From positions 1-34,314 of the forward strand of contig CAYOLL010000004.1 of NCBI GenBank assembly GCA_964404765.1: a DNA stretch of 34,314 nt, in the 5' to 3' direction. The notes beneath the pieces are model-generated. The model did not search any database and was not told where the DNA came from. It saw nothing but the letters and a program-made list of their open reading frames with translations. This DNA is from an uncultured Gemmatimonadota bacterium (GTDB lineage Bacteria > 4572-55). Positions 2,626-33,677 of this stretch are shown in pieces (position 1 is the first letter of the stretch; each line of letters begins with the position of its first letter). Both the position numbers and the translations under genes were made by a program.

Positions 2626-3489
2626 TTAAAGCAGAAAAGAGTCGATAATCAGCGCAAAAAAAAGCCCGAGCAAATAAACAATAGAATAGCCGAACAACTG
2701 CCAATGCCGGGTCGGTGTGGGATTCTGCCAATCCCGATAGGTTTTGAAGATAAAAAACAGGCCGCACCCGACAGCAACCACCAGATAGAGCAAGCCCGCA
2801 GTCAGATAATAAAGCAGCAGGCTGACGACCACCGTCGCCACGGAATAAAGCCACATTTGGCGCAGAGTAGTTATGTCGCCCTTGATCAATGGCATCATCG
2901 GGTAGCCGACTTCGCGATAATCTTCTTTGTAATATAATGCCAGCGCCCAAAAATGGGGTGGCGTCCACAAAAATATAATAAGAAACAACAAAATTGCCGT
3001 CCAGCTCAATGAATTGGCCGCGGCAGCCCAGGCAATCACCGGACCCATGGCGCCGGCTGCTCCACCGATAACAATATTTTGCGGCGTCGTCGGTTTGAGC
3101 CATAAGGTATAAAAAAAGCTGTAAAACAAGATAGTTCCGACTGCCAACGCCGCGCTAAACCAGTTAAAAGCCATAGCAAAAATAAGTACGCCCGCTACAC
3201 CAATGCCAATCGAGAAAATCAGGGCTTCGTTCGGTAAAATACGCCCGGACGGCAGCGGTCGCTTTGTTCGTGTCCGGCTCATGCGCGCGTCCACGTTACG
3301 CTCAAAATATTGATTCATGGCATTGGCACAACCTCCGGTTAAATACAAGGCGAACAATGCGGCGAAAAACCGAGCCGGGTCGGCGAGCAGACTTTTTTCC
3401 AAAAATAAGGCCGTCATACCGGTTATCACTACCAGCAGCATAATGGACGGCTTGGTTAATTGGAAGCAGGCTTTAATTTTTTTCAACAT
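2626..3489 (-). CDS. ctaB: Protoheme IX farnesyltransferase (heme O synthase), UbiA family
   Basis: A polytopic membrane protein with CyoE/CtaB hallmarks: LTKPSI..LLVV, NQYFERNVDARMSRTRTKRPLPSGRI, and WTPPHFWALAL. Confidence 0.9.
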   Translation of the reverse strand: MLKKIKACFQLTKPSIMLLVVITGMTALFLEKSLLADPARFFAALFALYLTGGCANAMNQYFERNVDARMSRTRTKRPLPSGRILPNEALIFSIGIGVAGVLIFAMAFNWFSAALAVGTILFYSFFYTLWLKPTTPQNIVIGGAAGAMGPVIAWAAAANSLSWTAILLFLIIFLWTPPHFWALALYYKEDYREVGYPMMPLIKGDITTLRQMWLYSVATVVVSLLLYYLTAGLLYLVVAVGCGLFFIFKTYRDWQNPTPTRHWQLFGYSIVYLLGLFFALIIDSFLL

Positions 3490-3667: not shown

Positions 3668-4120
3668 TTATTTCGCTGTTTCCGGTCTAAGCATAGGCCC
3701 GTAGCCCAGGGGCAGACCGCCTAATTCCCGCACATCTTTAAGCGTGTAGCGCTCCGCCCAATCTTTAAAATGCTCCTTTAAGACCGCCCAAAAGCCATGT
3801 AACGGGCATGGCTCGTCCTGATTGCACAGTCCCCAGCCAAACATACAGACCGTAGAGTCTACTTCATAATCCACTGCGTTTAGAATATCAATAAAGCGTA
3901 TCTTGTCTAACGGTTGAGCAAAGGTAAATCCCCCGCCGTGACCTTTCTGCGACAATAAAATACCGCCCGTTACCAACCGCCGCATGATCTTAGACAAGTA
4001 GTGCGACGGAATTTCCGCAATTTTTGACAAATCTTGCGTACGATGCGATACATCGTCCGGTTGCGAGGCCATATAGGCTACTGCCCGCATTGCGTATTCA
4101 GCCGTTTGTGTCAACCGCAT
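3668..4120 (-). CDS. Rrf2-family transcriptional regulator (NsrR/IscR-like, probably Fe-S-binding)
   Basis: MRLTQTAEYAMRAVAYMA is the N-terminal wHTH typical of Rrf2. The three-Cys cluster CMFGWGLCNQDEPCPLH matches the [Fe-S] ligand region of NsrR/IscR. A strong GGAG RBS sits 8 nt before the ATG at 4120. The ORF-track start at 4150 is a TTG; the MRLT start is typical for the family. Confidence 0.85.
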   Translation of the reverse strand: MRLTQTAEYAMRAVAYMASQPDDVSHRTQDLSKIAEIPSHYLSKIMRRLVTGGILLSQKGHGGGFTFAQPLDKIRFIDILNAVDYEVDSTVCMFGWGLCNQDEPCPLHGFWAVLKEHFKDWAERYTLKDVRELGGLPLGYGPMLRPETAK

Positions 4121-4280
4121 ATTGACTCCTTCATTCATTGCCCTCTTCAATTTTCGGCTTGCAGCATGGTGTCACTTTGGACTCCGACATACCGGCATAA
4201 TGGCTTAACCGAAACCCACGTTTTTTGAAAAGCATTGGTATCTTCAATAAAAATATAAAATTTTTTTTAAAAGTCAACTT

Positions 4281-4348
4281 AATAGACTTGACAATCTATT
4301 AAAAATATATAATTTTGGATTTACAAGTCCATAGACATTGAAATCTAT
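4281..4348. promoter_or_regulatory. Two dyad-symmetric sites ATAGA-N8-TCTAT: AATAGACTTGACAATCTATT at 4281-4300 and ATAGACATTGAAATCTAT at 4331-4348. They overlap candidate -35 elements (TTGACA at 4288-4293, TTTACA at 4320-4325).
   Basis: Inverted repeats read in the AT-rich divergent region between the Rrf2 gene and the HCO-like gene. They are positioned as operators over a plus-strand promoter. Confidence 0.4.
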
Positions 4349-4371
4349 TGAAATTTGAAAGGACGGCGACC

Positions 4372-5778
4372 ATGCAAACTTCAACCAAACTGACCGAACA
4401 ATGGCTGCGAATTGCCATCGGTTCCCTGATTCTGGCCGGATTGCTTTCGCTCATTCTGGTGATTGGGCGGATGCCGTATCTTAGCCAATTTATCACCGAC
4501 CCGCAGTTTGCCAAAAAATGCCTGGTGATCCATGTGAACCTGGCCATTTTTGTCTGGTTGTTCTCGTGCCTGACCGCGCTGTTCAACCTGATTCCGGCGG
4601 GCAAGCCGCTTGAGTTCAAAACACACACCGCGCCGGTGGCGATGCTGGGTATCGGTTGCTTTGTGATCAGCGCCGCCTGGCCGGAGGCGATGCCCATCCT
4701 GTCCAACTATATTCCGGCCATTGATCATCCGCTGTTTTTTATCGGCATTGCCCTATTTTCGCTGGCCGTGGCGATCAATTTGGTCGACCGCCGTTTATTT
4801 AGCGGCAGTAACGCCGGACTCCCGACGCATAACGCTACCGCAGGACAGATGAGCCTGAGTCCAGTGACCGTGGACGGTTTGCGCGGGGCGGGTTTGGCCG
4901 GATTACTGGCTTTCGCGGTTATCTTGATTACGGCCTGGCGGATTGACGCTAATTATACGCCAACGATGTACTACGATCTCGTCTTTTGGGGCGGCGGTCA
5001 TGTTATGCAATTTGCCAATATCCTGGGTATGCTGTCGGTCTGGTTGATTTTGCTGGAAGCATCCACCGGCCTGACGCCGATCTCGCAAAAAGCGGCGCGG
5101 GGACTTTTTGGCTGGCTGCTATTGCCGCTACTCTTCACGCCATTTCTGGCCTGGCAGGTTAACACGCCTTTTTATCAGAAAAGTTTTACCCGTCTGATGC
5201 AATGGGGCATATTTCCCGCCGTGTCCATCTTCCTGATCATCTGTCTATATACTGTATATCGCGCCTATCGCACCGGAAGAATAAGCCGCAGCGCCTTCCG
5301 TCATCCGGCGTTCATGGGCTTTGCTGCCAGCGCTGGCCTGACCTTGGTAGGGTTTGGGCTGGGGGCGATGATTCACCGTGTGGATACGCTGATCCCAGCG
5401 CATTATCATGCGGCGATTGGGGCTGTCACTGTGGCTTATATGGCAGTCGCGTATCGGGTGTGGGCGGCGCTGGGTTATCGGATTCAATCGCAGCGGCTGA
5501 CGCAGGCGGCCGGCTGGCAACCGGCGCTGTTTGGCATCGGCCAGGCCGTATTTGCGGTCGGCTTTGGGTTAGCCAAAATGGCCCGCAAGGTATATGGCGA
5601 CGAGCAGATTATACAAACCGCCACGCAACACGCCGGCCTGGTGTTGATGGGAATTGGCGGTTTTATTGCAATTGCCGGTGGAATTACATTTATCTGGATT
5701 ATTGCCGGCCTTATCTATCGCTATGAGCCTGCGACTTCGCATTTTAATTCGGAACTGAAAGTTGTCGTTAAGTCTTAA
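4372..5778 (+). CDS. Heme-copper oxidase subunit I-like membrane protein, a divergent paralog lacking the helix-VII His-His CuB ligands
   Basis: A polytopic TM protein that aligns with the downstream subunit I. It has a helix-II His (LVIHVNLAIFVW), WGGGHVMQF (compare WWGLGHVSQQ), G..MIHRVDTLIPAHYHAAIGAVT (compare GTEQINIIAHNTLRIPGHFHATVVGGS) and GLAKMARKVYGD (compare GSYGVPRRHYDV). It has no HH motif. The ATG is at 4372, after a GGA RBS. Confidence 0.6.
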   Translation: MQTSTKLTEQWLRIAIGSLILAGLLSLILVIGRMPYLSQFITDPQFAKKCLVIHVNLAIFVWLFSCLTALFNLIPAGKPLEFKTHTAPVAMLGIGCFVISAAWPEAMPILSNYIPAIDHPLFFIGIALFSLAVAINLVDRRLFSGSNAGLPTHNATAGQMSLSPVTVDGLRGAGLAGLLAFAVILITAWRIDANYTPTMYYDLVFWGGGHVMQFANILGMLSVWLILLEASTGLTPISQKAARGLFGWLLLPLLFTPFLAWQVNTPFYQKSFTRLMQWGIFPAVSIFLIICLYTVYRAYRTGRISRSAFRHPAFMGFAASAGLTLVGFGLGAMIHRVDTLIPAHYHAAIGAVTVAYMAVAYRVWAALGYRIQSQRLTQAAGWQPALFGIGQAVFAVGFGLAKMARKVYGDEQIIQTATQHAGLVLMGIGGFIAIAGGITFIWIIAGLIYRYEPATSHFNSELKVVVKS

Positions 5779-5882: not shown

Positions 5883-6035
5883 ATGGATGAACGTGATGAA
5901 GAAAAAAATCCGCTGCATAAGCTGATGGATAATCCCTGGCTGTTGCTGGTGCTGGGATTAGTGGTGCCGATTTTGTCTTATACCGTCTGGGGTTTGATCG
6001 AGATTATGACAATGCCGCAGGCGCTTTTGCCATAA
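5883..6035 (+). CDS. Small single-TM protein (50 aa), candidate accessory subunit of the oxidase/NOR complex
   Basis: MDERDEEKNPLHKLMDNPWLLLVLGLVVPILSYTVWGLIEIM has one hydrophobic helix. A strong AAGGAG RBS precedes it. It sits between the subunit-I-like and subunit II genes. Confidence 0.5.
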   Translation: MDERDEEKNPLHKLMDNPWLLLVLGLVVPILSYTVWGLIEIMTMPQALLP

Positions 6036-6098: not shown

Positions 6099-6623
6099 AT
6101 GAGTATTTACTCACCCGCGTCGGGCTGGTTTAAGGCGCCCGAAGGCGCCGAACGGCTGTGGATTGGCATCGCTTTAATTTGGTGCTTGATTATGTTTATC
6201 GCCATGCCTTATTGGCATTTTAAAGGGAAACAGAACAGTACCGGCGAGTCATATCGTGTTGATCCGAAAGCGTTTAATGAACGCATCGAAAAATATGTTC
6301 AGACGAATAAAGTTGGCGAAGAATTGGGCATTCCGGTCGTGGAAGCCGCGCCCGGCGGTGATGTTTATCTGCTCGGACAAATGTGGCGCTGGTATCCGAT
6401 TCTGAAGCTAAAAAAAGATCAGACCTATCGACTGCACATCTCGTCCATTGACTTGCAGCATGGCTTTTCGCTGATGCCAATGAACATGAATTTTCAAGTG
6501 CTGCCGGGTTATGACCATGTTTTGACCATCACGCCAACATCAACCGGCATCTTTCCGATTATTTGTAACGAGTTTTGCGGTATCGGTCATCACATGATGA
6601 CTGGCCGGATTATTGTAGAATAA
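6099..6623 (+). CDS. Heme-copper oxidase/NOR subunit II with cupredoxin domain and a complete CuA site
   Basis: An N-terminal TM is followed by a cupredoxin domain. The CuA ligand pattern is H(QHGFS)...C-N-E-F-C-G-I-G-H-H-M-M, i.e. C-x-E-x-C-G-x2-H-x2-M. The 174-aa size resembles ba3-type subunit II. An AGGAGG RBS precedes it. Confidence 0.85.
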   Translation: MSIYSPASGWFKAPEGAERLWIGIALIWCLIMFIAMPYWHFKGKQNSTGESYRVDPKAFNERIEKYVQTNKVGEELGIPVVEAAPGGDVYLLGQMWRWYPILKLKKDQTYRLHISSIDLQHGFSLMPMNMNFQVLPGYDHVLTITPTSTGIFPIICNEFCGIGHHMMTGRIIVE

Positions 6624-6722: not shown

Positions 6723-8435
6723 ATGGGAAATTTTTTACCAAATCAAATGCGTACGTGTGATACGACGCGGCTACCCGTTTGTCTGACGGCGCAGCTATTT
6801 ATCCGCGCTCATGCCGTATTTGCCGTTGTCTATTTACTGGTGGGCGCGATTGCCGCGCTACTATTGGCCTTGACGCGCTGGTCGGCGGTCCATCTGCTGC
6901 CTGCCGATTGGTACTATCGCATTTTGACTTTACACGGTATCAACATGCTGATTTTTTGGATGCTATTTATGGAAGTAGCGATTCTCTATTTTGCCAGCAC
7001 AACGCTGCTTAACTCACGCACTTTTTCCAAACCAATGGGTTGGGTCGGTTTTGTGCTGATGGTTGTAGGCTCGCTCATGACCGATTGGATGATTTTAACC
7101 GGCAAGGGCGATGTATTAATGACCTCATACGTGCCGCTCAAAGCGGATCCGATGTTCTATCTGGGCATCATTTTGGTAGCCGTCGGTGTCTTGCTGGGCA
7201 TTGTTAATTTTTTTGGAACACTCTATATCGCTAAACGGGATCATACTTATACCGGTTCGGTGCCATTAGTCACTTTTGGCGCATTGGCCGCGGCCATTAT
7301 CGGCGTGCTGACCATTTTGCATGGCGCGGCCATCTTGATCCCGACAATGCTCTGGTCAATGGGTTTGATGCCGGTCCCGGACGCGGGCGTTTATCGTCTG
7401 ATCTGGTGGGGACTGGGCCATGTTTCGCAGCAAGTAAATGTCTGTGCGATGGTTTCCGTGTGGTACTTTCTGGCCACGCTGACTGTCGGCGCGCGCCCGC
7501 TAAACGAAACCGTCTGTCGCACGGCTTTTATTCTCTATATTTTATTCATCAACTTAGCTTCGGCGCATCATTTATTGGTCGATCCCGGTGTTGGAGCTAC
7601 CTGGAAAATATGGAACACTTCCTACGCTATGTACCTGGCTGTATTAGCCTCGCTGATTCACGGCTTCACCGTGCCGGCATCGGTCGAAGTGGCCCAGCGC
7701 ATGAAAGGCTACACTCGCGGCATGTTCCAATGGCTGACTTCCGCGCCGTGGGGCGATCCGGGCTTTTCCAGCTTCTTCCTGTCGCTGACAATTTTTGGTT
7801 TTATTGGTGGTATTACCGGAGTGACGCTGGGCACTGAGCAAATTAATATCATTGCTCACAATACGTTGCGTATTCCCGGTCACTTCCATGCCACAGTGGT
7901 CGGCGGCTCAACGCTGGCTTTTATGGGTTTAGCCTACTATGTGGTTCCGCTGATTTTTCAGCGTGAGTTTTATTTAAAGGGCGTTGCTCGGGTGCAGCCG
8001 TACATTTTTGCCGCCGGTATTGTTATGCTGTCATTCGGGATGTCCTTTGCCGGTTCATACGGTGTGCCGCGCCGCCATTATGATGTTGATTTTACCGGGG
8101 CGAATATTCCGGCCGGTTTCGACTCTGCCGCACACTTTATGTTAGGGATTGTCGGTATTGGTGGAACTCTGGCTTTCATTGGGGCATTGATTTTTGTTCT
8201 GCTGGTGGTGGCGGCTGTCTTTTTTGGTAAATCCAATGTCGGTCAGCCCATGTCCGCCTGGCAATCTGCGGATAATCTGAAAATGAACGCCAACGTGCTG
8301 TCCCGGCCAATTGATGAGGCCATTGCGCATAAAGTTCCGGGTACTGTCACTTTAACGCTTGTCTTATTGGTATCTTTTGTGGTATACTATTTTGCTAACT
8401 GGAAAGCGTTGGCAGATGTCTGGTTTGTGCGGTAA
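6723..8435 (+). CDS. Heme-copper oxidase superfamily subunit I (B-family-like; putative NO reductase catalytic subunit)
   Basis: It has 12 or more TM helices with a helix-II His (LHGINMLIFWMLFMEVA), the helix-VI CuB His in WWGLGHVSQQVNV, the helix-VII HH in ASAHHLLVDPG, and the helix-X heme ligands in GHFHATVVGG. The 570-aa size is close to ba3 subunit I. Gln replaces the Tyr of the GHPxVY motif. An AGGAGG RBS precedes it. Confidence 0.9.
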   Translation: MGNFLPNQMRTCDTTRLPVCLTAQLFIRAHAVFAVVYLLVGAIAALLLALTRWSAVHLLPADWYYRILTLHGINMLIFWMLFMEVAILYFASTTLLNSRTFSKPMGWVGFVLMVVGSLMTDWMILTGKGDVLMTSYVPLKADPMFYLGIILVAVGVLLGIVNFFGTLYIAKRDHTYTGSVPLVTFGALAAAIIGVLTILHGAAILIPTMLWSMGLMPVPDAGVYRLIWWGLGHVSQQVNVCAMVSVWYFLATLTVGARPLNETVCRTAFILYILFINLASAHHLLVDPGVGATWKIWNTSYAMYLAVLASLIHGFTVPASVEVAQRMKGYTRGMFQWLTSAPWGDPGFSSFFLSLTIFGFIGGITGVTLGTEQINIIAHNTLRIPGHFHATVVGGSTLAFMGLAYYVVPLIFQREFYLKGVARVQPYIFAAGIVMLSFGMSFAGSYGVPRRHYDVDFTGANIPAGFDSAAHFMLGIVGIGGTLAFIGALIFVLLVVAAVFFGKSNVGQPMSAWQSADNLKMNANVLSRPIDEAIAHKVPGTVTLTLVLLVSFVVYYFANWKALADVWFVR

Positions 8436-8446
8436 ACTTCTAACAT

Positions 8447-8506
8447 GGAGTGCAAAAATAGATTTTTGCAGTGGGAAAAAAGTGCAAAATTAAAATTTTG
8501 CACTCC
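8447..8506. promoter_or_regulatory. Two adjacent copies of the palindromic motif: GGAGTGCAAAAATAGATTTTTGCAGTG at 8447-8473 and AGTGCAAAATTAAAATTTTGCACTCC at 8481-8506 (a perfect 26-bp palindrome)
   Basis: Inverted repeats read directly, 37 to 95 bp upstream of the HiPIP ATG at 8543. Confidence 0.4.
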
Positions 8507-8542
8507 GATACTTTAACCAATTTTAAATGGAGCGAACCAATC

Positions 8543-8893
8543 ATGGAAAACATGATTACCCGGAAAGAGTTTTTGAAAAAACTTGGCCTGATCGGCGTGG
8601 CCGCTTTTGGCGGCAGCACGCTATTAACGGCTTGCAGTAAAGGCGGCGAGCAAAGCGGGGGCGGCGCAGCGGCGGATCCTTGCGCGGATATCAGCGGCTT
8701 GAGCGATGCCGATAAGCAGACCCGCACCCAATTTCAATACGCTACAACGTCCGCCGATCCCAACAAGACCTGTGACAAATGCGCTTTGTGGCAAGGCGTA
8801 ACCGGCAGCGGCCCGTGCGGCGCCTGCCAGGTTGTCAAAGGCCCGATCGCCGTTTTAGGCACTTGCACGGCGTTTGCGGCCAAGCCGGCGTAA
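8543..8893 (+). CDS. High-potential iron-sulfur protein (HiPIP), lipoprotein-anchored
   Basis: The signal peptide has a lipobox (GSTLLTAC). The mature domain, TQFQYATTSADPNKTCDKCALWQG....GPCGACQVVKGPIAVLGTCTAF, matches the HiPIP four-Cys pattern C-x2-C...C...G-x-C with conserved aromatics. Confidence 0.7.
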   Translation: MENMITRKEFLKKLGLIGVAAFGGSTLLTACSKGGEQSGGGAAADPCADISGLSDADKQTRTQFQYATTSADPNKTCDKCALWQGVTGSGPCGACQVVKGPIAVLGTCTAFAAKPA

Positions 8894-8904
8894 TGTTATT
8901 TTTG

Positions 8905-8956
8905 AACCGGATCAACCCAAAGGATTTTGCGAGCCTTTTGGGTTGATCTTACCGGT
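8905..8956 (+). other. Long imperfect hairpin: AACCGGATCAACCCAAAGG-loop-CCTTTTGGGTTGATCTTACCGGTT (about 19-bp stem) between the HiPIP and sco genes. No adjacent U-tract.
   Basis: Read directly. The loop contains ATTTTGCGA, which resembles the TTTTGCA half-site. Confidence 0.35.
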
Positions 8957-9044
8957 TCTGTGAATTCGAGACTCGGTCAAAATTTTTTAATCAGTTTAGT
9001 GATAAATGGATATATTTTTCCTTTATCTGCAAAGCGAGGCTCCT

Positions 9045-9992
9045 ATGAAAATCATCGAAAATATACAGCAATTCCTGATTGGCTGGCGCTTTCCGGTGAT
9101 GATGGTGTCCATGCTGCTTTTTTTCAGCCTGGAGTTATTTATTGTCCTGTTGATTCCGGCTTCGAGCGGGGCGGCGGCACAGTTTGCCGAAGATTTTAAA
9201 ACCTGGTGTTTTGGCTATGACCCGGCTACGGGTAAACTGGAATGGGGTTATGTGATTATGTTTCTGATTCAGCCCTTGATGATGTGTGGCGTAATCATCA
9301 TGGTTTGGATCAAGCCGCTCAAGGAAGTCTGGCAAGATCGTCCGACTCAGACGGTGCCGTATCTGGTCAGTTCGGCTACGATTGTGCTGGCCCTGGGTGT
9401 AAGCCTGACGCTGATGGTTGGCGCGGATGCCCGCGCTGCCGATGAGCAATTGCCTTTTCCGGCTGAGGCGCTGCGCACGGAACTAAACCCGATCCCATTT
9501 TCGCTGATGAATCAGGATAGCGCCGTTGTGAGCCTGGAATCGTTAAAAGGCCGGGTGACGCTGATTACGGCAGTTTACGCCCGCTGTGGCTATACGTGCC
9601 CGATGATTTTGGCGCAAACGCGTCGGGTGATGAGCTCCCTGACGCCACAGGAATTGAAAGAGCTTTCGATTCTGGGCATCACGCTCGATCCGGAGCATGA
9701 CGATGTCGCCGTGCTGCGGGAAATGGCCGCCGGTCAACAAGTCAAGACGCCGCTGTTCCATTTTCTAACCGGCGAATCAGCCTATGTTAACCAAACCCTT
9801 GATATGTATGGTTTTGCCCGCAAGCGCAATCCGGAAACCGGGGTGATCGACCACGCCAATCTTTTTTTATTAATTGATCGGCAGGGCAAAATCGCTTATC
9901 GCTTTTCGATTGGCAAACGGCAGGAAGATTGGCTGGTTCACGCCATACGCATGTTGATTAAAGAAAAAAAGGGTTCGGGTGTCGCGGCATGA
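9045..9992 (+). CDS. SCO1/SenC-family copper chaperone with an N-terminal polytopic membrane extension
   Basis: The C-terminal thioredoxin-like domain carries YARCGYTCP (the CxxxC copper site) and a downstream DHANLFLLIDRQG (conserved His). The N-terminal 140 aa contains 3 to 4 hydrophobic helices. A GAGG RBS precedes it. Confidence 0.8.
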   Translation: MKIIENIQQFLIGWRFPVMMVSMLLFFSLELFIVLLIPASSGAAAQFAEDFKTWCFGYDPATGKLEWGYVIMFLIQPLMMCGVIIMVWIKPLKEVWQDRPTQTVPYLVSSATIVLALGVSLTLMVGADARAADEQLPFPAEALRTELNPIPFSLMNQDSAVVSLESLKGRVTLITAVYARCGYTCPMILAQTRRVMSSLTPQELKELSILGITLDPEHDDVAVLREMAAGQQVKTPLFHFLTGESAYVNQTLDMYGFARKRNPETGVIDHANLFLLIDRQGKIAYRFSIGKRQEDWLVHAIRMLIKEKKGSGVAA

Positions 9993-10053
9993 CCTGAAAA
10001 ACTCGTGACAGGCCACAAAGGCACGAAAACACTAAGTTTCACGAAGTTTGTTA

Positions 10054-12207
10054 ATGTTTTATGTCTTCAGCGCTTATGTTTGTGAACAATTCACCCGGAA
10101 AATTATGCGCCCACGCCCCATCATTACCCATGAGGATATACCACAACTAAATGCAACGCATGTGCGTGATGCCCGGTCCGAACCACCGGTGCGTGGCGAA
10201 GCTCTGCTGACCCAATTAGATATGCAGTTTACCCGGCTAAACCGATGGGTTAAGGCTGTCGTCCCTGATGCACTTAATCCGTTTACGCAGATGGGCGCCG
10301 TGGCGGATACGATGTTTATCGTTGCCATTATTAGTGGTATCTTGCTGTTGTTTTGGTATAAGGCCAGCGTGTTTCAGGCCTATGATTCGTTAGAAGCGAT
10401 GCGGCATAATTGGCCGGCGCAGTTAGTGCGCTCAATCCATCGTTATAGTTCGGACGGTTGTTTGCTCTTTGTCATTTTACATGCATTGCAAATTCTGGGA
10501 GCACGCAAGTTTGGCGGTGTGCGCTGGCTGGCCTGGGTTTCCGGTGTGGCGCTGGTCTGGCTGTTATGGGTAGATGGCTGGACGGGTTATTGGCTGGTTT
10601 GGGACGTGTCGGCGCAGCAAGTAGCGCTTGGCACCGCGAAATGGTTAGATGTGCTGCCGATTTTTGCCGACCCTTTATCACGTTCTTTTTTAACTGACGA
10701 CAGCGTCAATTCGTTATTCTTTTTTGTGGTGTTTTTTATCCACATGCTGCTGCCGCTGGTCATGGGTGTGGCGTTGTGGATTCACATTATGCGCTTAAAT
10801 GATTCGCATTTTCTGACCAATCGCAAGTTGACCGGCATTTTGCTTACGGCGCTGGTAATGGTTTCGCTTCTCTTTCCGGCTCTATCGGCTGAACAAGCGG
10901 CCATGCAAATCGCGCCACAATCTTTCAAGATGGATTGGTTTTATTTATTACCGCTGATTGTGACGGATCGTTTACATGGCGGTGGTTTGTGGTTAGTTAC
11001 CGTCATTTTTACGGTTGCTTTTTTTAGTGTGCCGTGGGCTATGGCCCGACAACGATCCGCGCCGGCAAAGGTCAATCCGGAACGCTGTCACGGCTGCACA
11101 CAGTGTTTTCAGGATTGTCCATTTAACGCGATTACGATGCGCCCGCGTGATGGTAAGCATCCGGTTGTATCCTATATTGATCCGGATAAGTGCGTGGGCT
11201 GCGGCGTGTGCGTCGGCTCGTGCGATCCCTGGGCAATTGAGTTTGATGCCCTGCGGCAGATGGATGTGCGCAAATGGATTCGTCAGCGGCTCAAGATCGA
11301 AACTGCTGATCCGCGTCACGTTGCTTTTGTTTGCGCCGATTCTGCCGGGGCGGATTTACAACTGAATGCCGCCGGGGAGTGCGCTGAATTGACTGGCTAT
11401 CGAATCGTGCCTGTGCCGTGTGTAAGCTGGCTGTTTGCGCCCATGATCGCGCAAGTATTGCGGGCCGGTGTGCCGGGGGTGATGGTTGTGGGTTGCGGAC
11501 CAAACGAAATTTGTCGTAAAGGCAACCGTTGGACGGCCGAACGTCTGGCTGGAACCCGCGAGCCTTATTTACTGATGACACCTTCTGCGGCCGCAGATCA
11601 TGATGAAAGTGATCTGGTTGGGCGGATTCGATATATACGCTACGATCGATCGCAGAAGGCGGAATTTATTGCCGACGCGCAGGATTTTCGGGCCGGAAAA
11701 GTGACTGCGCCAAAAGTGTCCGCCCGGCGTTGGGCAAACGTGGTGGTTATTTTTCTTATCTTAGCTGGGGCGATCATTACATTGAGTCGCATGCCCTATC
11801 GTCCGCCACAGTTGGAAACCGCGGAATTAGTGATCTCTTTCAAACATCCGGGGCAGTTGGTCGAGCAGGTTACGGCTTCCGCTGCCGATCAACAAAATAT
11901 ATTGCCGCACATGCGTGGCGGCGCCTCTAAAAAGAGGTTACGTACGGCGGTTCGTTTGCAGGTATTCGTCGATGGCGCAGAAAAAGTCAATCAAACACTG
12001 GCTCCACGCGGTCTATTTAGCGATGGCGCTAGCATTGCCATTGAAAAAATACCGCTATTGGAAGGTCGCCATCTGGTTAAAGTGCGAGTAGGCGATTCGG
12101 CTAATCCGGATGAATGGCAATTTTCTGATTCGCGCGAGCTGGATTTTAAAATAGCAACGCGACGTGTAGTTTTGTTCAGCAAATCGGCGGGATTTAAATG
12201 GTATTGA
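10054..12207 (+). CDS. Multi-domain membrane electron-transfer protein: di-heme cytochrome b (N-terminal), 2x[4Fe-4S] ferredoxin, an MvhD/FlpD-like domain, a TM helix and a C-terminal about 150-aa domain
   Basis: Two H-x13-H pairs in TM helices ([16 protein letters not shown] and [16 protein letters not shown]) match the cytochrome b heme bL/bH ligands, alongside an R..H..A...F motif. [12 protein letters not shown] and [12 protein letters not shown] are two 4Fe-4S motifs. [10 protein letters not shown] ... [37 protein letters not shown] resembles the methyl-viologen-reducing hydrogenase delta subunit domain. The start is uncertain: the ATG at 10054 and the ATG at 10105 both lack a clear SD, and the TTG at 10048 is also possible. 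Confidence 0.7.
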
Positions 12208-12359
12208 TCAAATAGATTTGCACAAGTTTCAAATTTTAGCGCACTTGCGTGCTAATAATGGACATGTAAGTCTATTATTATATTTTGTTTGCTACTTTAA
12301 TTCACAACGCGAGTTTGTGAGCTCGCACAATATCAATCTAAGGGAAGGAGTACGGGTTA

Positions 12360-13846
12360 TGGGAACAAAAAAGGGGTTGTTTTTCGGAACAGCGATGGTG
12401 ATTTTGACGCTTTCGTTATCGCTTATTTACTCATGTAATGAGCAGCAATCGGCACAATCAAAGTCAAGTGGGAGTAGCAGTAAAGCAGACAATGGGCTCG
12501 TTAAGTTGGAGCCGGTGGCCGTACAAGGCGAGGAAGTGGCAGTCTTAACCGATCCACCGATGGTGCCGCCACCGATTACGCGCACCAATGCGACAAAAGT
12601 GATTGTCAATCTGGAGGTTATTGAAAAAACAATGCGGATTGCCGACGGAGTGATGTATACTTTTTGGACATTCGGCGGGACGGTGCCTGGCAAGTTTATC
12701 CGCGTGCGTGAAGGCGATTTTGTAGAGTTTCACCTGAAAAATCATCCGGAAAATAAGTTGCCGCATAATATTGACTTACATGCGGTTACGGGACCTGGCG
12801 GCGGCGCAGCCTCCTCATTTACTGCCCCGGGGCACGAGTCGGTCTTTTCGTTTACGGCGATGAACCGCGGCTTGTATGTCTATCACTGCGCGACGGCGCC
12901 GGTAGGTATGCATGTGGCCAACGGCATGTATGGCTTGATCTATGTTCAGCCAAAGGAAGGCTTGCCGCCGGTTGACAAAGAATACTATGTTTTCCAAAGC
13001 GATTTTTACACCAAAGGCGCGTATGGCGCAGCCGGTCTGCAACCCTTCAGCATGGAGAAAGCTTTGCAGGAACTGCCGGATTATGTGGTTTTTAACGGCT
13101 CCGTCGGTTCGACAACCGGCGATAAGGCGATGACCGCCAAAGTCGGCGATAAAGTGCGCCTTTTTGTTGGCAATGGCGGCCCGAATATGGTCTCTTCCTT
13201 CCACGTTATTGGCGAAATTTTTGATAATGTTTATGAAGAAGGCGGCGATCGGGTTAATCATAACGTGCAGACAACAATGGTTCCGGCGGGCGGCTCGACG
13301 ATCACCGAATTTGTGTGTGAAGTGCCGGGCACGTTTATCCTGGTTGACCATTCCATTTTCCGGGCGTTTAACAAAGGCGCTATCGCGATGCTAAAAGTCG
13401 AAGGCGCTGAAAATAAAACGATCTACTCCGGTAAGCAGGATGATCGTATCTATCAAGGTGAAGGTTCTGCGGTGCAGGAAATGCCGGGGGGAGCTGTTGT
13501 CGAAGCGCCCGCAGCCAAGACCAAAGAGGAGCGTATGGAGCGCGGACAAAATGTGTATAAATCCATTTGCATTGCCTGCCATCAGGCCGAAGGTCAGGGT
13601 ATGCCGGGCGCATTCCCGCCATTGGCCGGTTCGGACTTCCTGAATGCTGACAAGAACCGCGCCATCAAGACGGTAATGAACGGCTTGGAAGGTAAGGTGA
13701 CGGTTAACGGCGCGGATTACAACGGCATCATGCCCAAGCTGAACCTGACAGATGAAGATATTGCCAATGTTGTTACCTATGTGCTGAATAGCTGGGGCAA
13801 TAGCGGCGGCGAGATTACGCGAGATGATGTGAAGAAACTGCGGTAG
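12360..13846 (+). CDS. nirK: Copper-containing nitrite reductase (NirK) with C-terminal mono-heme cytochrome c domain, lipoprotein
   Basis: The lipobox is LSLSLIYSC. The type-1/type-2 Cu ligand motifs are [13 protein letters not shown] and [18 protein letters not shown]. The two-cupredoxin length fits NirK. The C-terminal [19 protein letters not shown] is a CxxCH heme c site. A GGAAGGAG RBS precedes it. The ORF-track start at 12218 is a TTG far upstream. Confidence 0.9.
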
Positions 13847-13870
13847 TATTGTTAAAAATTAGTCGTGCTA

Positions 13871-13912
13871 CAGATACCCACTTTCTTCATGGAAAGTGGG
13901 TATCTGTGTTTG
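13871..13912 (+). terminator. Rho-independent terminator after nirK: CAGATACCCACTTTC-loop-GAAAGTGGGTATCTG followed by TGTTTGG
   Basis: A perfect 15-bp stem followed by a T-rich tract, read directly. Confidence 0.6.
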
Positions 13913-14141
13913 GTAGAGCCAGAATTGCTCTCGCCCTCTTTGAACGCCTTCGCAAACTGCTTCCGAATACACATTTCCTGACAAGTTAGACCGATCTTAT
14001 CATCCCATCCGAATTTTCAAGTGTATTAGCCAAAACGCTTGACAAGTTTTTGCCGCGTATGCTATACTTGAACGGTATTTAACTTTTCGTACAAATCGAC
14101 ATATTTTTTTATTCAGCGGGGCTAAAAATAAAGGACGCCAC

Positions 14142-17100
14142 ATGCAAGACCTTGAAAGTCTTAAAAGCAAGGCTGCTTCAGAGCTGACGCAAGCGCTGCC
14201 TTTGGTGGATAAATCTGTTGAAAAAAGCTCACCCAAAAGATTGGACGCAACGGCCTATAGCGCTATGCCGCCGGCGATTGCCGAAATGTGCCAGCGTTAT
14301 GGTCGCAAGAAAAATGCGGCGACTCGTCTGGAAGTTTTGCTGCAATGTTTTGACGCCCTACAGATTCATGTTACCTGCTTGCTGTTGGCTGATTATTTGA
14401 ATAGCGCCGGTGTTGATACCGACTTAAACGATTTACTAAGTGACTATCTGGCCGAGTCTGAAATCAGCGCTATTTTTTTCTATATACTGCTGGAACAATA
14501 CCGTGCCAGCAATAGTGGCCATTTCTTTGCCCGTCAGAAAAATCAACTAATGCCCGCCGTGCCATTTGAAGATTGGGAAATTGCTTATAAAAACATCAAT
14601 TTTTCGAATGCGCAACAATCCCTTGATCTTTTATTTCCCCGCATCAGCAAACAATTTGAGCTGTTTCGATTTTTAAACCAGTATCCTTTGTTTGTCGTGC
14701 GCGCCTATGATGAAGAGCGGGATGCCTATCAGGTGGATTGGTTACTGCAAAACAAAAGCGACTGGATTTCTTCAAAAAAAGATGAGCCGCTTATTCTCAA
14801 CCGACTTTATCTGGCAGACGAGGCGGGTTCCCTGTCGTTGCACCCGTTATTGATTACAGCCAAGTGTCCGAAGTGCCAGCAGGAGCACATTTTTTATTTT
14901 CAAAAAATTAATCGTGAAGCGCTTGTCTATTTCAATTTTGAAGATTTTCATACGCTCTCCATAACGGATGTCTCCGTTATGAGTGAACTGGGGAATACGC
15001 TGGCTCAGAAGAAAGCATACAGTCTGGCAGTACAATGCTTTGAAGTTATTTTGCGTATTCGACCCAATGACAAAACCGCCCGTTCGGGGTTGTTTGCGAC
15101 CCATAATCTGTATGGCGTGCAGCTTTTTGAGGCCAAAAAATTTGAGGAGTCCGGTGAGCAGTTTCGTTTAGCCTTAGTCTTGCGTGCCGATGTCAGCCAG
15201 GTTTATTTTAACCTGGCTACGGCGTATCGGAAGAGCAAAAATTTTAGCGGCGCACTGGAAACAATTGATCGACTATTGGAACGGCAGCCGAGTCTTACGA
15301 AAGCCTTGGAAGCCAAAGCGCAGATTCTGGAAGAGTACGGTCAGCATGACGAAGCCTTAAAAATCTATGAGACCGCCTTAAAATCCGATCTGGCATACAA
15401 ACGTATTTTTACTTCCTGGCGACGGTTAAGCGACCAAATTGCTATGCCGCAAGCTACGCCGGTTAAAAAAGACGACAAAAAAGCCGATAAAAAAACCGAC
15501 AAGCCGGAAAAGAAGGAAGATAAAAAATCGGCATTAGAAATTTTGACCCGTGATGTAATGGAATACGTTAAAAAAGAAGCCGTTGAGCCGATTTTTGGAC
15601 GGGAAAAAGAATTGGGCGAGATTATGGAAATTCTGACCTGCCATAATAAAAACAACGTCATACTGGTGGGTGAGTCCGGTGTTGGCAAATCGGCAATTGT
15701 CGAGGAGTTGGCCCGTCGGGTGATCCGCGAGGATGTGCCGCAGCGCCTCAAGGGTAAGCGCTTGCTGGAGCTTAGCACAACCACGCTGGTGGCCGGAACA
15801 AAGTTTCGCGGCGAATTGGAAGAGCGAATTCTAAGTTTAGTGGATGAAATTAAGAGTGATGGCAGTATTATTCTTTACATTGACGAGATATCCAGTATCG
15901 TTCACGGCGGTTCCTATCGCGGCAGTACTGTGGAAATTTCCGGTGTTTTAAAGCCCGCCCTGGCGCGTGGCGAAATCCAGTGCATCGGCACGGCGACACT
16001 CGACGAATATCGTCGCAATATCGAAAAAGATCAGGCACTGGAACGGCGCTTTCAAATTGTGCATGTTGACGAGCCAAGTGTTGATGAAACATTGTCGGTG
16101 CTAAAAATTACGGTTAACAAGTTTGAGACTTTCTACGGTGTGCATTTTGATGATGAAGCCATGCGTTTAGCAGCAGAGTTTGCCAAAAATTTTTTGCGGG
16201 ATCGGGCCTTGCCGGATAAAGCCCTGGACTTGCTTGATCGCGCCGGGGCAAGTGTGGCCTATGCCGCACAAAACGACCCAAATATTCCGCCCTATGTGAC
16301 GCCGGACGATATGATTCGGATTGTATCCAAGATCAGCGGTGTGCCGGTTAATAAAATCGACCAATCCAATGCTGAGCGCTACCAGAACATGGAGTCTATT
16401 TTGCGTCGCAAAATTGTCGGTCAGGATGCGGCAATTGATCAGGTTTGCCGTGTTATCCGTACGAATCGCATGAAGTTTAAGTTGAATCCCAGCCGTCCGG
16501 AGGGTGTTCTGCTTTTTCTTGGCCCTACCGGGGTAGGCAAGACCGAGCTGGCCAGAATGCTGGCTGAGTTTCTGTTTGGCAGTGTTGATGACATGATTCG
16601 GATTGATATGTCTGAGTTTTCTGATCGCATTGCCACGACCAAGTTGGTTGGCGCTGCGCCGGGTTATGTGGGTTACAATGATCCTAATCAATTGACGGAT
16701 CGGGTGCGAAACCACCCTTATACGCTTGTTTTATTAGATGAAATTGAAAAAGCTGATTCGCAGGTTCTCAATATTTTTCTGCAGGTTTTTGACGCCGGTC
16801 GCCTGACGGATTCCAAAGGCCGCGATGTGGCTTTTAATCACACAACCGTTGTGATGACATCCAATATTGGTTCCGAGTTGTTTTTTAAAACGACTATCGG
16901 TTATGGGGATAATCGCAACGGCGGTTCTTCCGGGAAGGCTGTGGCGGTTTCCACGCAGCAACTGATGCGGCAGCTTCAGAGCCGGTTGACCCCGGAATTT
17001 TTGGGTCGGATCGATGAAATTGTTGTCTTTAATCCGCTGATGCTGGACGACGCCAAAAAAATTGTTGAATTGCGGCTTAAGGCGATTCATGACCAATTGC

Positions 17101-21405: not shown

Positions 21406-23394
21406 TTAACGCAACAACACAGTTCGCGCAGTCATCAAGCCGGCGTTTGTTTGCAAGCTCCAAAAATAAATACCATTAGCCAGTTGACGATTATCCTGTG
21501 ACTGTCCATTCCAGGACAGATTATGCTCGCCGGGTGAAAGCAGTTCTTGGTCAAGAATCGTGCGCACCATGCGACCGGCGCTGTCATAAATCCGCACGGT
21601 TGCCGTTGAAGCCGCCGGCAAGTAAAAAGCCAGCGTGGTTTGATCGGAAAACGGATTCGGATGGCTTGCTTGCAAACTCGGGCGGGCGGCCGCATTTTCA
21701 ACAAATACATCGTGCTCGGGTGATTGCCAATTGCGTCCATCGGCAAAGAGCGCTTCTATAAAATAGCGATAGGCAAAGCCGGATGACGGGTGATCTTCAT
21801 ACATGACGGTTGTTGGCGCTAAAATCGGTGATATGCCAGAATAATCTGCCGCGGGACCAATGCCTTGCCGATGAACACGAATGCCGGTAATATGGGTCAA
21901 ATCCGACAACTGCCAGGCAAGCTTGACGCCCGGACCATTCATCTGCGCCTGAAAAGAGAGCAATGTTAAAGCGGCTACGCGCTGATAGTTTATCGCCGCC
22001 ACGACATCAATGATACCCCAGCCGAGCAGCGTATCCGGGTGGGTGGCCTGGCTGGCGGTCATCATCAGCGCTTCGCGGATTTGCATCATCGTCCAATCGG
22101 GATGGGCTTGCAAAAGCTGGGCGGCGCAGCCGGCCACTAACGGCGACGACAAAGACGTTCCGCTAAGATTATAATAGCCAATTGCACTGCGGGCGCGGGC
22201 GCAGCGCGTACTAACGCCACGAGCCATAACCTCCGGTTTAAGCCGGCCGTCGGCGGTTACCCCGTCAGAGTTGAAACTCGCCCTGGCGCCGGTTGCATCG
22301 ACCGCTCCAACGGTTAAGATGCTGTCGGCATCGGCCGGCGCGCCCAGAAACGGGTGGGTCGGGTCGCCGCCGCTATTACCCAGCGAGACGCAGATGACGA
22401 CGCCAAGACCGGCGGCAATATCGGCGGCGCGGGTGATCGGCGCAGTATCGCCGTCCATTTGCGCATAAGTATACCAGTCCAGGTAGCTCAACGAGCTATT
22501 GGCCACATCTGTGCCCAGGCCTTCCGCCCATTCAATGGCCGCAATCCAGTAATCTTCTTCAACCGGTGTTTCGTTGGGTAAGTCCTCGGTTTTGGCCAGA
22601 ATGAAGTGGGCTTTATAGGCCGGACCGATGAGCTTTCCGTCGGCATAACCACCCAAAGTTGACCAGGTCGCCGTGCCATGATCGTGTTGACCGCTCACAT
22701 CGTTGGCCTCATTTTGCACATTGCCGTCATTGAAAATAAAATCATGCTGCGCCAGTAAACGCCCTTCGCTGAGAATGGCGGCAAAGGATTCGTGGGTCAG
22801 ATTGTAGCCCGTATCAAGCATCGTAACAATCACCCCAGCGCCGTTATAACCAAGCCGATGGGCATTGACGGCATTGATCTGATTCAGTTGGTCAAATGAC
22901 AGGCCGTAGTTTAAATCTGCCGGCGTGGCCATGACTTCAGCAGGTGTTTCCACTAATTCCGGCCGTTTGAAGCCCAATACCGGCTGAATGCGGCTGACAA
23001 AGGGCAGAGCGGCGATTTGAGCCAATTGCTCCCGGGTTGTTACCAGGCTGATGGCATTTAACCACTTACTGGTTTGGACTATCCTTGCGCCGGTTCCAGC
23101 CAACCGTGCCGAATAATCCGCCGCCACCGGCAGGTCAAGCTGCGAAACACCCGGCTTTTGACCGCGTTTATGCCGTCGTTCAATCGCGCGATCAGTCAGA
23201 CCTAATTCGGCTAACGACATTGTGGCAGCGCTCGCTTGGGCATTTTCTGTGCTCTTGTCCGTTAAAAAAACCCAGACTTTCAGCTCTGACTGACCCGTCA
23301 GACGTTCATAAACCCGGCTGTCGATTTTTGACGCCATGCCGGATGAAACCCAGCCCAGAATGGCAATAAGAACGGCTGCTACTGTAATTCGCAT
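21406..23394 (-). CDS. Subtilisin-family (S8) serine peptidase with C-terminal T9SS sorting domain
   Basis: It has a signal peptide. The catalytic triad motifs are VIVTMLDTGYN (Asp), HDHGTATWS (His) and LSGTSLSSPLVAGCAA (Ser). The C-terminal NPFSDQTTLAFYLP...VRIYDSAGRMVRTI...WNGQ..ANGIYFWSL... is a T9SS type-A sorting domain. Confidence 0.85.
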   Translation of the reverse strand: MRITVAAVLIAILGWVSSGMASKIDSRVYERLTGQSELKVWVFLTDKSTENAQASAATMSLAELGLTDRAIERRHKRGQKPGVSQLDLPVAADYSARLAGTGARIVQTSKWLNAISLVTTREQLAQIAALPFVSRIQPVLGFKRPELVETPAEVMATPADLNYGLSFDQLNQINAVNAHRLGYNGAGVIVTMLDTGYNLTHESFAAILSEGRLLAQHDFIFNDGNVQNEANDVSGQHDHGTATWSTLGGYADGKLIGPAYKAHFILAKTEDLPNETPVEEDYWIAAIEWAEGLGTDVANSSLSYLDWYTYAQMDGDTAPITRAADIAAGLGVVICVSLGNSGGDPTHPFLGAPADADSILTVGAVDATGARASFNSDGVTADGRLKPEVMARGVSTRCARARSAIGYYNLSGTSLSSPLVAGCAAQLLQAHPDWTMMQIREALMMTASQATHPDTLLGWGIIDVVAAINYQRVAALTLLSFQAQMNGPGVKLAWQLSDLTHITGIRVHRQGIGPAADYSGISPILAPTTVMYEDHPSSGFAYRYFIEALFADGRNWQSPEHDVFVENAAARPSLQASHPNPFSDQTTLAFYLPAASTATVRIYDSAGRMVRTILDQELLSPGEHNLSWNGQSQDNRQLANGIYFWSLQTNAGLMTARTVLLR

Positions 23395-27330: not shown

Positions 27331-27987
27331 TTATGACAAAACATCTTCTACTTTGATTGAAAATCCTTCCAACAATTTCGATGGCACTGCCGGCTTGCCT
27401 GGACCGACCTGGCTTGCAAACAACTCATAAGCGCCGTCGGTCAGTGCATAAACTTCTATCGCCTGCCAAGCCGGATCGATAATCCAATATTCCTTGACGC
27501 CGAATTTCTGATACAAAGCCATCTTCGTGTTGCGATCTCGCTGGATGGATGACGGGGAAATAATTTCGACGATCAAATCCGGCGCACCGACAATGCCGTG
27601 CGGGGCAATAATCGAACGATTGGCTTCGGCGATAAACACAATGTCCGGCTGGATCGTGTTTTCGTCGGATAAGATTACGTCAATGGGCGCGTGAAACACT
27701 TGTCCCGATTTATTCATCCGCACTAATTGGGCGAGACGCAATAATACATTTAACGAGGCGTTTTGATGATCCGTTGATGGCGCAGACATAGCAATTAACT
27801 CCCCATTTATGATTTCATAACGCTTGTCATCCGGCAGGGTCAAATAGTCGGTGTACGTCCATCTTTTGGTGGGGACGAACGGCTTTGCCGGCGCAACAAC
27901 CGCAGGCTTATTGAGATATGGCGCGGGCGCTTTCTTTTTCCGTGCTTTTGCCGTCGGGGAAACGGCGGCTTGTTCCAAAATTGCCAT
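27331..27987 (-). CDS. Uma2-family (DUF820) putative PD-(D/E)xK endonuclease with Lys/Pro/Ala-rich N-terminal tail (copy A)
   Basis: YEIINGELIAMSAPSTDHQ...HAPIDVILSDENTIQPDIVFIAEAN...GAPDLIVEIISPSS...KMALYQKFGVKEYWIIDP...IEVYAL matches the Uma2 family. The N-terminal AKARKKKAPAPYLNKPAVVAPAKPFVPTKR tail is unusual. A GGAGG RBS precedes it. Confidence 0.8.
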   Translation of the reverse strand: MAILEQAAVSPTAKARKKKAPAPYLNKPAVVAPAKPFVPTKRWTYTDYLTLPDDKRYEIINGELIAMSAPSTDHQNASLNVLLRLAQLVRMNKSGQVFHAPIDVILSDENTIQPDIVFIAEANRSIIAPHGIVGAPDLIVEIISPSSIQRDRNTKMALYQKFGVKEYWIIDPAWQAIEVYALTDGAYELFASQVGPGKPAVPSKLLEGFSIKVEDVLS

Positions 27988-27996
27988 AACAACCTC

Positions 27997-33610: not shown

Positions 33611-33677
33611 AAAAGCTCTTTCACTCCAAGATAGACCGACAAATATTCTATTCCTCCAAAACTCCACCACTCCGGCC

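Follow-up and report, generated by a model that had tools for sequence, protein, structure and literature searches.

Closest described systems

Members of the haem-copper oxidase (HCO) superfamily are usually defined by a binuclear haem/CuB (or FeB) centre. The subject of this study is Q468, a protein of 468 amino acids (aa) encoded on the plus strand at positions 4372-5778 of a stretch of 34,314 nucleotides (nt) from an uncultured Gemmatimonadota bacterium (GenBank assembly GCA_964404765.1, contig CAYOLL010000004.1; the whole stretch is called the window below). Judged by its fold and its descent, Q468 belongs to the HCO superfamily, yet it lacks the binuclear centre by which the superfamily is defined; it stands for a large, widespread family that has dropped two of the three metal-binding histidines, with strict selection for both predicted haem sites. 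For the described HCO families, the active-site histidines are reported to be conserved in all except gNOR (Murali et al. 2024, PMC11214002).

The nearest counterpart in the literature comes from Ferrigenium straubiae: its 'eNOR scaffold protein' (IMG gene 2878407321) is a hypothetical protein that KEGG places under cytochrome c oxidase subunit I (K02274) and that is listed as having an unknown function (bioRxiv 10.64898/2026.01.22.701106). This preprint is the sole earlier description we found; the gene may also be drawn in the operon figure of Murali et al. (2024), whose supplements were outside our search. According to the supplements of the preprint, the scaffold protein was seen in the proteome together with eNOR. 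Its transcript, at about 0.3k transcripts per million (TPM), resembles those of CtaB and Sco1 (0.3-0.6k) and lies 7- to 40-fold below those of eNOR I and II (2-15k); the preprint gives neither a ligand analysis nor a function for the scaffold protein. The Ferrigenium eNOR operon encodes a heme o synthase, Sco1 and a cytochrome b/Fe-S/FlpD protein, i.e. the same gene set as the window and the divergent half of the Q468 family, but its gene order differs from that of the divergent half downstream of Sco1.

Among functionally characterized enzymes, the closest system is the eNOR of Rhodothermus marinus, a proven nitric oxide (NO) reductase with heme As in both sites (PMC11214002). Its type of subunit I, represented in the window by the product of the gene at 6723-8435, shares with Q468 the 12-helix fold, the haem ligands of helices II and X, the GHV.Q motif of helix VI, the Arg/Lys pair and the operon. 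In contrast to eNOR subunit I, Q468 has no His-His pair in helix VII, its family carries Phe, Leu or Val instead of Gln at the position of the active-site Tyr, and Met replaces the K-channel Thr; it is also about 100 aa shorter, lacks the C-terminal extension and is only 23% identical. Identity to subunit I of the ba3 oxidase of Thermus thermophilus (B-family; PDB 1XME, 3EH3) is 18%.

Three further systems are comparable in setting or proposed role. The haem a insertion factors Surf1/Shy1 and CbaX and the CtaA-CtaB machinery are encoded in oxidase operons beside CtaB and CtaA, and the job proposed for them, and here for Q468, is to bring haem from the synthases to subunit I. They show no sequence or fold relation to Q468, and no subunit I paralog appears among the assembly factors in a review of the field (PMC9145763). 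CtaA/Cox15 (PF02628) gave no match to Q468 and is considered here as a functional analogy only. NnrS (PF05940), a haem/copper protein of denitrifiers with which the original prediction of this gene proposed a comparison, is likewise a polytopic membrane haem protein co-regulated with denitrification genes. Q468 does not match the NnrS family, however, and in one related locus (L011) a true NnrS (357 bits) is encoded as a separate gene near the cluster; an NnrS identity was therefore rejected.

Homology and descent of Q468

The open reading frame (ORF) of Q468 is intact from the ATG at 4372 to the TAA at 5778; a longer version starting at TTG 4348 is disfavoured by the N-termini of homologues. 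The protein has twelve transmembrane helices, in keeping with the subunit I fold. As a single sequence Q468 finds no match in Pfam, NCBIfam or PDB, and profile searches alone succeeded. The COX1 family of Pfam (PF00115) does not match Q468 at E<=0.01, but relatives exceed its cut-off, e.g. P0240 with 50.2 bits against 34.8, as do about half of the matches in a homologue search. A profile built from 34 family members retrieved from PDB only the ba3 subunit I of T. thermophilus (E 8e-12; query 16-462, chain 26-505). When the Q468 family was aligned with the family of the neighbouring subunit I (hhalign), the probability was 99.8% with E 2e-30 over 415 columns. The family profile scores 85-130 bits with co-encoded eNOR subunits I and 47 bits with ba3, and it has no match to A-family COX1. 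Given this ranking, Q468 is to be placed in the eNOR/B-family lineage, as a paralog and diverged duplicate of an eNOR-type catalytic subunit, and by the same scores its closest catalytic relative is the co-encoded eNOR-type subunit I about 1 kb downstream. This bears out the original prediction, in which the protein was described as a subunit I paralog; profile and alignment together exclude both a hidden His-His pair and an unrelated transporter fold, the two findings that had been named as arguments against it.

The family is real, abundant and mis-annotated. An exhaustive hidden Markov model search of 1.84 billion cluster representatives (clusters at 50% identity) returned 697 of them at E<=1e-30, a number that rises to 1192 at E<=1e-10, and a stringent pattern scan located relatives in at least 252 of 185,579 species genomes. 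The carriers are nearly all metagenome-assembled genomes (MAGs) and belong to the taxonomic groups Calditrichota, Acidobacteriota/Holophagae, Myxococcota, Verrucomicrobiota, Planctomycetota, Balneolaceae and Methylomirabilota; an isolate, Fodinibius halophilus 2W32, carries the gene cluster as well (L045). Surveys of metagenomes will wrongly count relatives of Q468 among the oxidases or NO reductases.

Conserved haem ligands and loss of the metal site

Conservation was counted in an alignment of 253 family members, with representatives down to 27% identity. The predicted ligands of both haems are close to invariant. Helix II (LVIHVNLA, residues 51-58, positions 4522-4545) provides H54, which is present in all 253 sequences, aligns with H72 of ba3 (LTLHGVL) and is predicted to ligate the low-spin haem. 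Helix X (PAHYHAAIG, residues 342-350, positions 5395-5421) contains H344 as predicted ligand of the high-spin haem and H346 as second ligand of the low-spin haem; H344 occurs in 253, H346 in 252 and the intervening Y345 in 251 of the sequences, and the segment aligns with PGHFHLQV in ba3 and PGHFHATV in eNOR. All three histidines coincide with haem ligands of ba3 and eNOR. In the loop between helices XI and XII (RKVYGD, residues 405-410, positions 5584-5601), R405 and K406 (252 and 251 of 253) correspond to the propionate-binding Arg-Arg pair, and they align with VPRRAY of ba3 and VPRRHY of eNOR.

The non-haem metal site, on the other hand, is reduced to a single residue. In helix VI (WGGGHVMQF, residues 206-214, positions 4987-5013), H210 is the sole surviving CuB-type ligand; it is found in 253/253 sequences, W206 in 252 and the near-invariant Q213 in 248. 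Four residues after H210, at the position of the cross-linked Tyr of the oxygen-reducing A, B and C families, Q468 has Phe (residue 214), and the family is variable (Phe 93, Leu 76, Val 43, Ala 9, His 9). The corresponding segment of helix VII, LLLPLLFTPFLA (residues 249-260, positions 5116-5151), is free of His: FHHQF of ba3 and SAHHLL of eNOR align opposite this stretch or a gap. The ba3 enzyme, by comparison, has a complete CuB site (H233, H282 and H283) along with the cross-linked Y237 and a 13th helix. Q468 thus possesses neither the tri-His site common to CuB and FeB enzymes nor the combination of Gln at the Tyr position, tri-His site and CuA subunit II that characterizes eNOR.

This loss extends to the whole family. 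A His-His pair in helix VII occurs in none of the 253 members, and the seven HH dipeptides present in these sequences are scattered over non-homologous sites, mostly outside helix VII. A single helix VII His, in a PHL motif at Q468 position 253, is found in 26 of the 253 sequences (about 10%), and the protein of the window has Leu there. This His lies roughly one turn before the expected position of the canonical pair, and the PHL subclade might keep a two-His metal site. By the alignment, the loss of the metal site is an ancient trait, selected in the entire family, and does not reflect the decay of one gene.

Helix VIII (FTRLMQWGIFP, positions 5185-5217), aligned to helix VIII of ba3, contains T273 and the near-invariant M276 (237 and 252 of 253 sequences). 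They stand opposite S309 and T312 of ba3, which we take to belong to its K-channel analogue. Conserved Cys are absent from the family alignment. With its ligands missing, Q468 cannot hold FeB or CuB, and the Thr/Tyr chemistry of the proton channel is gone too; with both of these lost, Q468 can be neither a catalytic oxidase nor a catalytic NO reductase.

Most of what the original prediction had read from the gene is recovered here. The motifs that it quoted for helices II, VI and X and for the loop RKVYGD are all present; the His-His pair is missing, Phe stands at the Tyr position and the protein is about 100 aa shorter than its neighbour (468 versus 570 aa). Its claim that low-spin and possibly high-spin haem could still be bound but not a tri-His CuB agrees with the predicted ligands and the propionate-binding Arg/Lys pair, and the alignment answers the question it had raised of whether the loss is conserved in homologues.

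Genomic contexts, gene fusions and candidate functions

Each synteny scan covers the 80 loci most similar to its query, so that the proportions given here are biased, and the contexts derive mostly from MAGs and short metagenome contigs. In 74 of the 80 genome loci, Q468, a 50-aa ORF, CuA subunit II, eNOR subunit I, SCO1 and a cytochrome b/Fe-S protein follow each other in this order on one strand, with Q468 at the head. Counted gene by gene, SCO1 is present in 65 of these loci, the cytochrome b/Fe-S fusion in 62, a divergent upstream Rrf2 gene in 41 and CtaB in 24. In the window's subfamily none of the 80 loci has CtaA within 8 kb, whereas CtaB is present. NirK occurs within 8 kb in just seven of them, and NirS is near 12 of the 80 loci of the other subfamily.

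This second, divergent half of the family, scanned here in metagenomes, is about 28% identical to Q468 and has identical invariant residues. Its gene order is [small ORF], subunit II, eNOR I, CtaB, SCO1, cytochrome b/Fe-S/FlpD, a 170-aa ORF and the Q468-like gene. Out of 80 loci, 24 contain CtaB, about 40 an SCO1-type gene, 11 an adjacent CtaA (PF02628) and 14 a DUF420 gene; DUF420 is CtaM (PMC4958251). The gene set that surrounds the Ferrigenium scaffold gene, namely a subunit-I-like hypothetical protein with eNOR II and I, heme o synthase, Sco1 and cytochrome b/Fe-S, is found in the window, in the 74 genome loci and in the divergent subfamily.

Other members of the family have no NO reductase next to them. 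In two Calditrichota-like genomes (L001, positions 8001-15227, and L013), the Q468 homologue stands first in an operon and is followed by SCO1, an A-family COX1 (487 bits), COX3, COX2-cytochrome c and CtaB, with no NO reductase. In six metagenome loci a Q468-like gene lies beside an A-family-like COX1 that is 35-42% identical to the COX1 of the Calditrichota-like operon, mostly together with CtaB and in one case with SCO1. In nine further metagenome loci (L087-L093, L097 and L139), a CcsA-like gene is located directly 5' of the Q468-like gene, and no NO reductase was detected in these nine loci. The one such locus examined in full (L089:2741-9976) encodes an NHL protein, a 774-aa multihaem cytochrome c, a ResB-like protein, a CcsA-like protein, the Q468-like protein and a thioredoxin-like protein; the last two genes overlap by 1 nt. 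Some orphan copies were seen as well. Three members (P0226, P0257 and P0260) have C-terminal tetratricopeptide repeat (TPR) domains with weak matches to TPR of the CcmH/CycH type. In another locus (L016), the cytochrome b gene is followed by an ORF of 454 aa with a faint COX1 match, which was dismissed as unrelated to Q468 (hhalign probability 0.1%).

The common denominator of these contexts is the supply of haem and copper cofactors to periplasm-facing membrane enzymes, not NO. Because members of the family accompany A-type oxidases and cytochrome c maturation genes and are fused to CtaB, we favour, tentatively, the interpretation that Q468 is an accessory, haem-handling maturation factor for haem-copper enzymes. 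The eNOR clusters on their own permit a different view, in which Q468 is a stoichiometric but non-catalytic subunit of eNOR, either the scaffold of a pseudo-dimer or a relay whose haems pass electrons from cytochrome b/Fe-S to the catalytic subunit. The operon shared with eNOR II and I in 74 of the 80 loci and in the divergent subfamily is in line with such a subunit, and so are the eNOR subunit I as nearest homologue, the existence of a cytochrome b::Q468 fusion (P0225, L082:2-2287, next to NirS), and the co-detection of the Ferrigenium protein with eNOR, which its authors expressed in the name 'scaffold protein'. Yet members of the family are also found beside A-family oxidases, among cytochrome c maturation genes and as single genes, and the transcripts in Ferrigenium lie far below those of eNOR I and II; we regard this view as rather unlikely. 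The eNOR-type haemoprotein of Magnetospirillum, too, reportedly had two subunits when purified, although a literature check gave nothing usable on its composition. The evidence leans towards a sub-stoichiometric maturation factor over a structural subunit, which fits a Ferrigenium transcript at the level of CtaB and Sco1.

Q468 is also tied closely to heme o synthase. The protein P0230 (L081:2629-4875) is a fusion of Q468 and heme o synthase (TIGR01473, 250 bits against a cut-off of 210.3) within an eNOR-like operon, followed by SCO1, and in another locus (L086) CtaB begins 4 nt past the Q468 gene. Such an arrangement would also suit a haem-modifying enzyme, a hitherto unrecognised one on an oxidase scaffold: Q468 and the cytochrome b/Fe-S protein could together act as another kind of heme A(s) synthase, perhaps one that needs no O2, or as a related oxidoreductase that works on haem O in the former high-spin site. 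The cytochrome b/Fe-S protein would be its obligatory redox partner in the eNOR clusters, and H210, Q213, T273 and M276 would form a conserved polar/Met pocket. Both sites of eNOR are occupied by heme As, and the canonical CtaA depends on O2 (PMC11214002); the anoxic supply of heme A is a puzzle already raised for eNOR. Here the 80 loci of the window's subfamily have CtaB but no CtaA within 8 kb. However, 11 of the 80 loci examined for the other subfamily have CtaA beside the Q468-like gene, and two Cox15 genes exist in F. straubiae. Nor is heme A involved where Q468 accompanies cytochrome c maturation genes, and Q468 shows no sequence relation to CtaA. A simple replacement of CtaA is weakened by the same 11 loci, and the enzymatic role as a whole seems improbable to us. 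If it were true, denitrifiers could equip eNOR with heme A under anoxia.

A thioredoxin-fold protein, either SCO1 or a redoxin, is encoded beside Q468 in all three types of context. This recurrence can be read as a sign of a transmembrane route for the reduction or delivery of metal, along which a cytoplasmic donor would pass electrons via Fe-S and cytochrome b to the haems of Q468 and from there to Cu(II)/Fe(III) or to SCO/TlpA-type proteins. Such a route would resemble that of CcoG, the membrane [4Fe-4S] cupric reductase of cbb3 assembly, and Cu(I)/Fe(II) could be bound transiently by H210, Q213 and M276; Cu(I) is typically ligated by His, Met and Gln. The position of the Q468-like gene by the thioredoxin-like gene in the ResB-CcsA cluster of L089 would agree with this, as ResB-CcsA clusters often carry a membrane reductant transporter at roughly this place. 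What speaks against such a route is that the family has no conserved Cys and that neither the A-type oxidase contexts nor those of System II include the cytochrome b/Fe-S partner. We give it a low probability, similar to that of the haem-modifying enzyme.

The original prediction had proposed that a heme-only oxidase-fold protein next to an NO reductase may bind, sense or scavenge NO, and had named a regulatory or scaffold pseudo-subunit as the alternative. As a haem-only sensor, buffer or scavenger of NO (or O2), Q468 would protect or regulate the NO reductase. NO would be a ligand for a five-coordinate haem that has a distal His, and the surrounding denitrification genes (NirK, NirS), together with the divergent Rrf2 gene and its conserved operators, are compatible with such a function. 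The wider distribution of the family argues otherwise, since the same protein occurs at an A-family oxidase operon, in a ResB-CcsA-thioredoxin cluster and fused to heme o synthase, i.e. in contexts and fusions that have no relation to NO. Moreover, no output or signalling domain is present, the NnrS of L011 is a gene of its own, and the conserved partners of Q468 are cofactor-maturation genes. Among the alternatives we consider this one, which the data do not support, the least probable, and a very unlikely one.

For a maturation factor, we hypothesize the following course of events. Q468 would keep two haem pockets, with H54 and H346 as bis-His ligands of one haem, H344 as ligand of the second, and R405 and K406 at the propionates. 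It may accept new haem O or A(s) from CtaB (and CtaA), or haem bound for periplasm-facing proteins, hold or present it for insertion into the true subunit I, and act together with SCO1/TlpA-type thioredoxin-fold proteins. In the eNOR clusters its redox partner would in addition be the cytochrome b/Fe-S membrane protein, and the operon is probably switched on via the conserved Rrf2 operator. The fold, the kept and lost ligands, their conservation, the synteny and the fusions are observed, whereas haem binding, hand-over and redox coupling are all presumed here.

Several observations weigh against this interpretation. The cytochrome b/Fe-S partner is present in most eNOR clusters and fused to the family in P0225; a passive chaperone has no obvious need for it, and the co-occurrence and the fusion imply real electron transfer through Q468. 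Both predicted haem sites as well as H210, Q213, T273 and M276 are kept almost strictly, which looks more like an active site than like a holding pocket. Haem binding is itself predicted from aligned residues. Finally, the Ferrigenium protein, named a scaffold by those who described it, is probably a member of the Q468 family, an assignment that follows annotation and operon content only. Should a role in maturation nevertheless hold, Q468 would be the first paralog of a catalytic subunit recruited to build its own enzyme family, and it would stand in for the Surf1- and Cox11-type factors that B-type and eNOR enzymes are not known to have. The family bears directly on the assembly of NO reductases with heme A when O2 is scarce or absent, which has been posed explicitly as a question for eNOR.

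Gene neighbourhood in the window

Q468 is located at the head of the NO reductase operon and next to a divergent Rrf2-family gene with conserved dyads, as described in the original prediction. The regulator is encoded on the minus strand at 3668-4150 (PF02082, 93.6 bits). Between it and Q468 lie two operator-like inverted repeats (4281-4349), AATAGACTTGACAATCTATT at 4281-4300, which includes a TTGACA, and CATAGACATTGAAATCTATT at 4330-4349. A pair of the form AATAGAC-N6/7-GTCTATT is also found upstream of homologues in loci of Calditrichota, Balneolaceae, Planctomycetota and Verrucomicrobiota; the loci of Myxococcota and other deltaproteobacteria have a different palindrome (AGATCT..AGATCT). 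The conservation of the dyads supports their prediction as an Rrf2 operator. Because the regulator stays below the NsrR equivalog cut-off (38.9 bits versus 182), its responsiveness to NO is a presumption only. Downstream of the Rrf2 gene on the same minus strand follows heme o synthase CtaB (2626-3489; NF003349, 306.9 bits against a cut-off of 246). Further downstream of CtaB, at 607-2493 on the minus strand, there is an ORF for an apparently soluble protein of 628 aa with no Pfam or NCBIfam match, which we set aside as unrelated.

On the plus strand, Q468 is followed by an ORF for a membrane protein of 50 aa with a single helix, MDERDEEKNPLHKLMDNPWLLLVLGLVVPILSYTVWGLIEIMTMPQALLP (5883-6035), which has its own AAGGAG ribosome-binding site. 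It was recovered by tblastn in 74 of the 80 related loci with 45-72% identity and belongs to no Pfam family; it could be a third subunit of eNOR similar to subunit IIa of ba3. The CuA-type subunit II (6099-6623, plus strand, 174 aa; PF00116) has the ligands H121 and C156-x-E-x-C-G-x-x-H-x-x-M. The catalytic HCO subunit I (6723-8435, plus strand; PF00115, 217.9 bits) shows the eNOR signature GH233VSQQ237, H282H283 and H387/H389. It combines Gln at the Tyr position, the His-His pair and a CuA subunit II, and it is assigned to eNOR by these features; Gln at this position is diagnostic of eNOR (Table A4, PMC8756737).

The ORF that comes next on the plus strand (8543-8893) is a candidate for a lipoprotein similar to high-potential iron-sulfur proteins (PF01355, E 0.003, 18.2 bits with a cut-off of 22). 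It has a signal of the twin-arginine type, a lipobox Cys and a four-Cys pattern. No homologues occur in the 160 related loci, and it is present in the window alone; its product could serve CuA as a local source of electrons. The N-terminal part of SCO1/SenC (9006-9992, plus strand; PF02630) is a membrane domain of about 160 aa (9006-9500), which belongs to no Pfam family and is conserved among the related genome loci (65 of 80).

The adjacent plus-strand gene (10048-12207) encodes cytochrome b fused to two [4Fe-4S] domains, an MvhD-like FlpD and a C-terminal domain of about 170 aa, as annotated with Pfam and NCBIfam. The C-terminal domain (approximately 11550-12204) belongs to no known family, but in 40 metagenome loci its homologue is a separate ORF directly 5' of the Q468-like gene (e.g. 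L158:5718-6236). NirK fused to cytochrome c (12218-13846, plus strand; TIGR02376, 355.9 bits against a cut-off of 296.3) begins 10 nt past the cytochrome b/Fe-S gene; given this spacing, nitrite and NO reduction are probably co-transcribed.

Elsewhere in the window, two proteins with C-terminal sorting tails of the type IX secretion system, one of them an S8 peptidase, point to an organism of the FCB group; these proteins and two tandem Uma2-family endonucleases are encoded on the minus strand (21406-23394, 32276-33724 and 27331-28656) and are unrelated to Q468.

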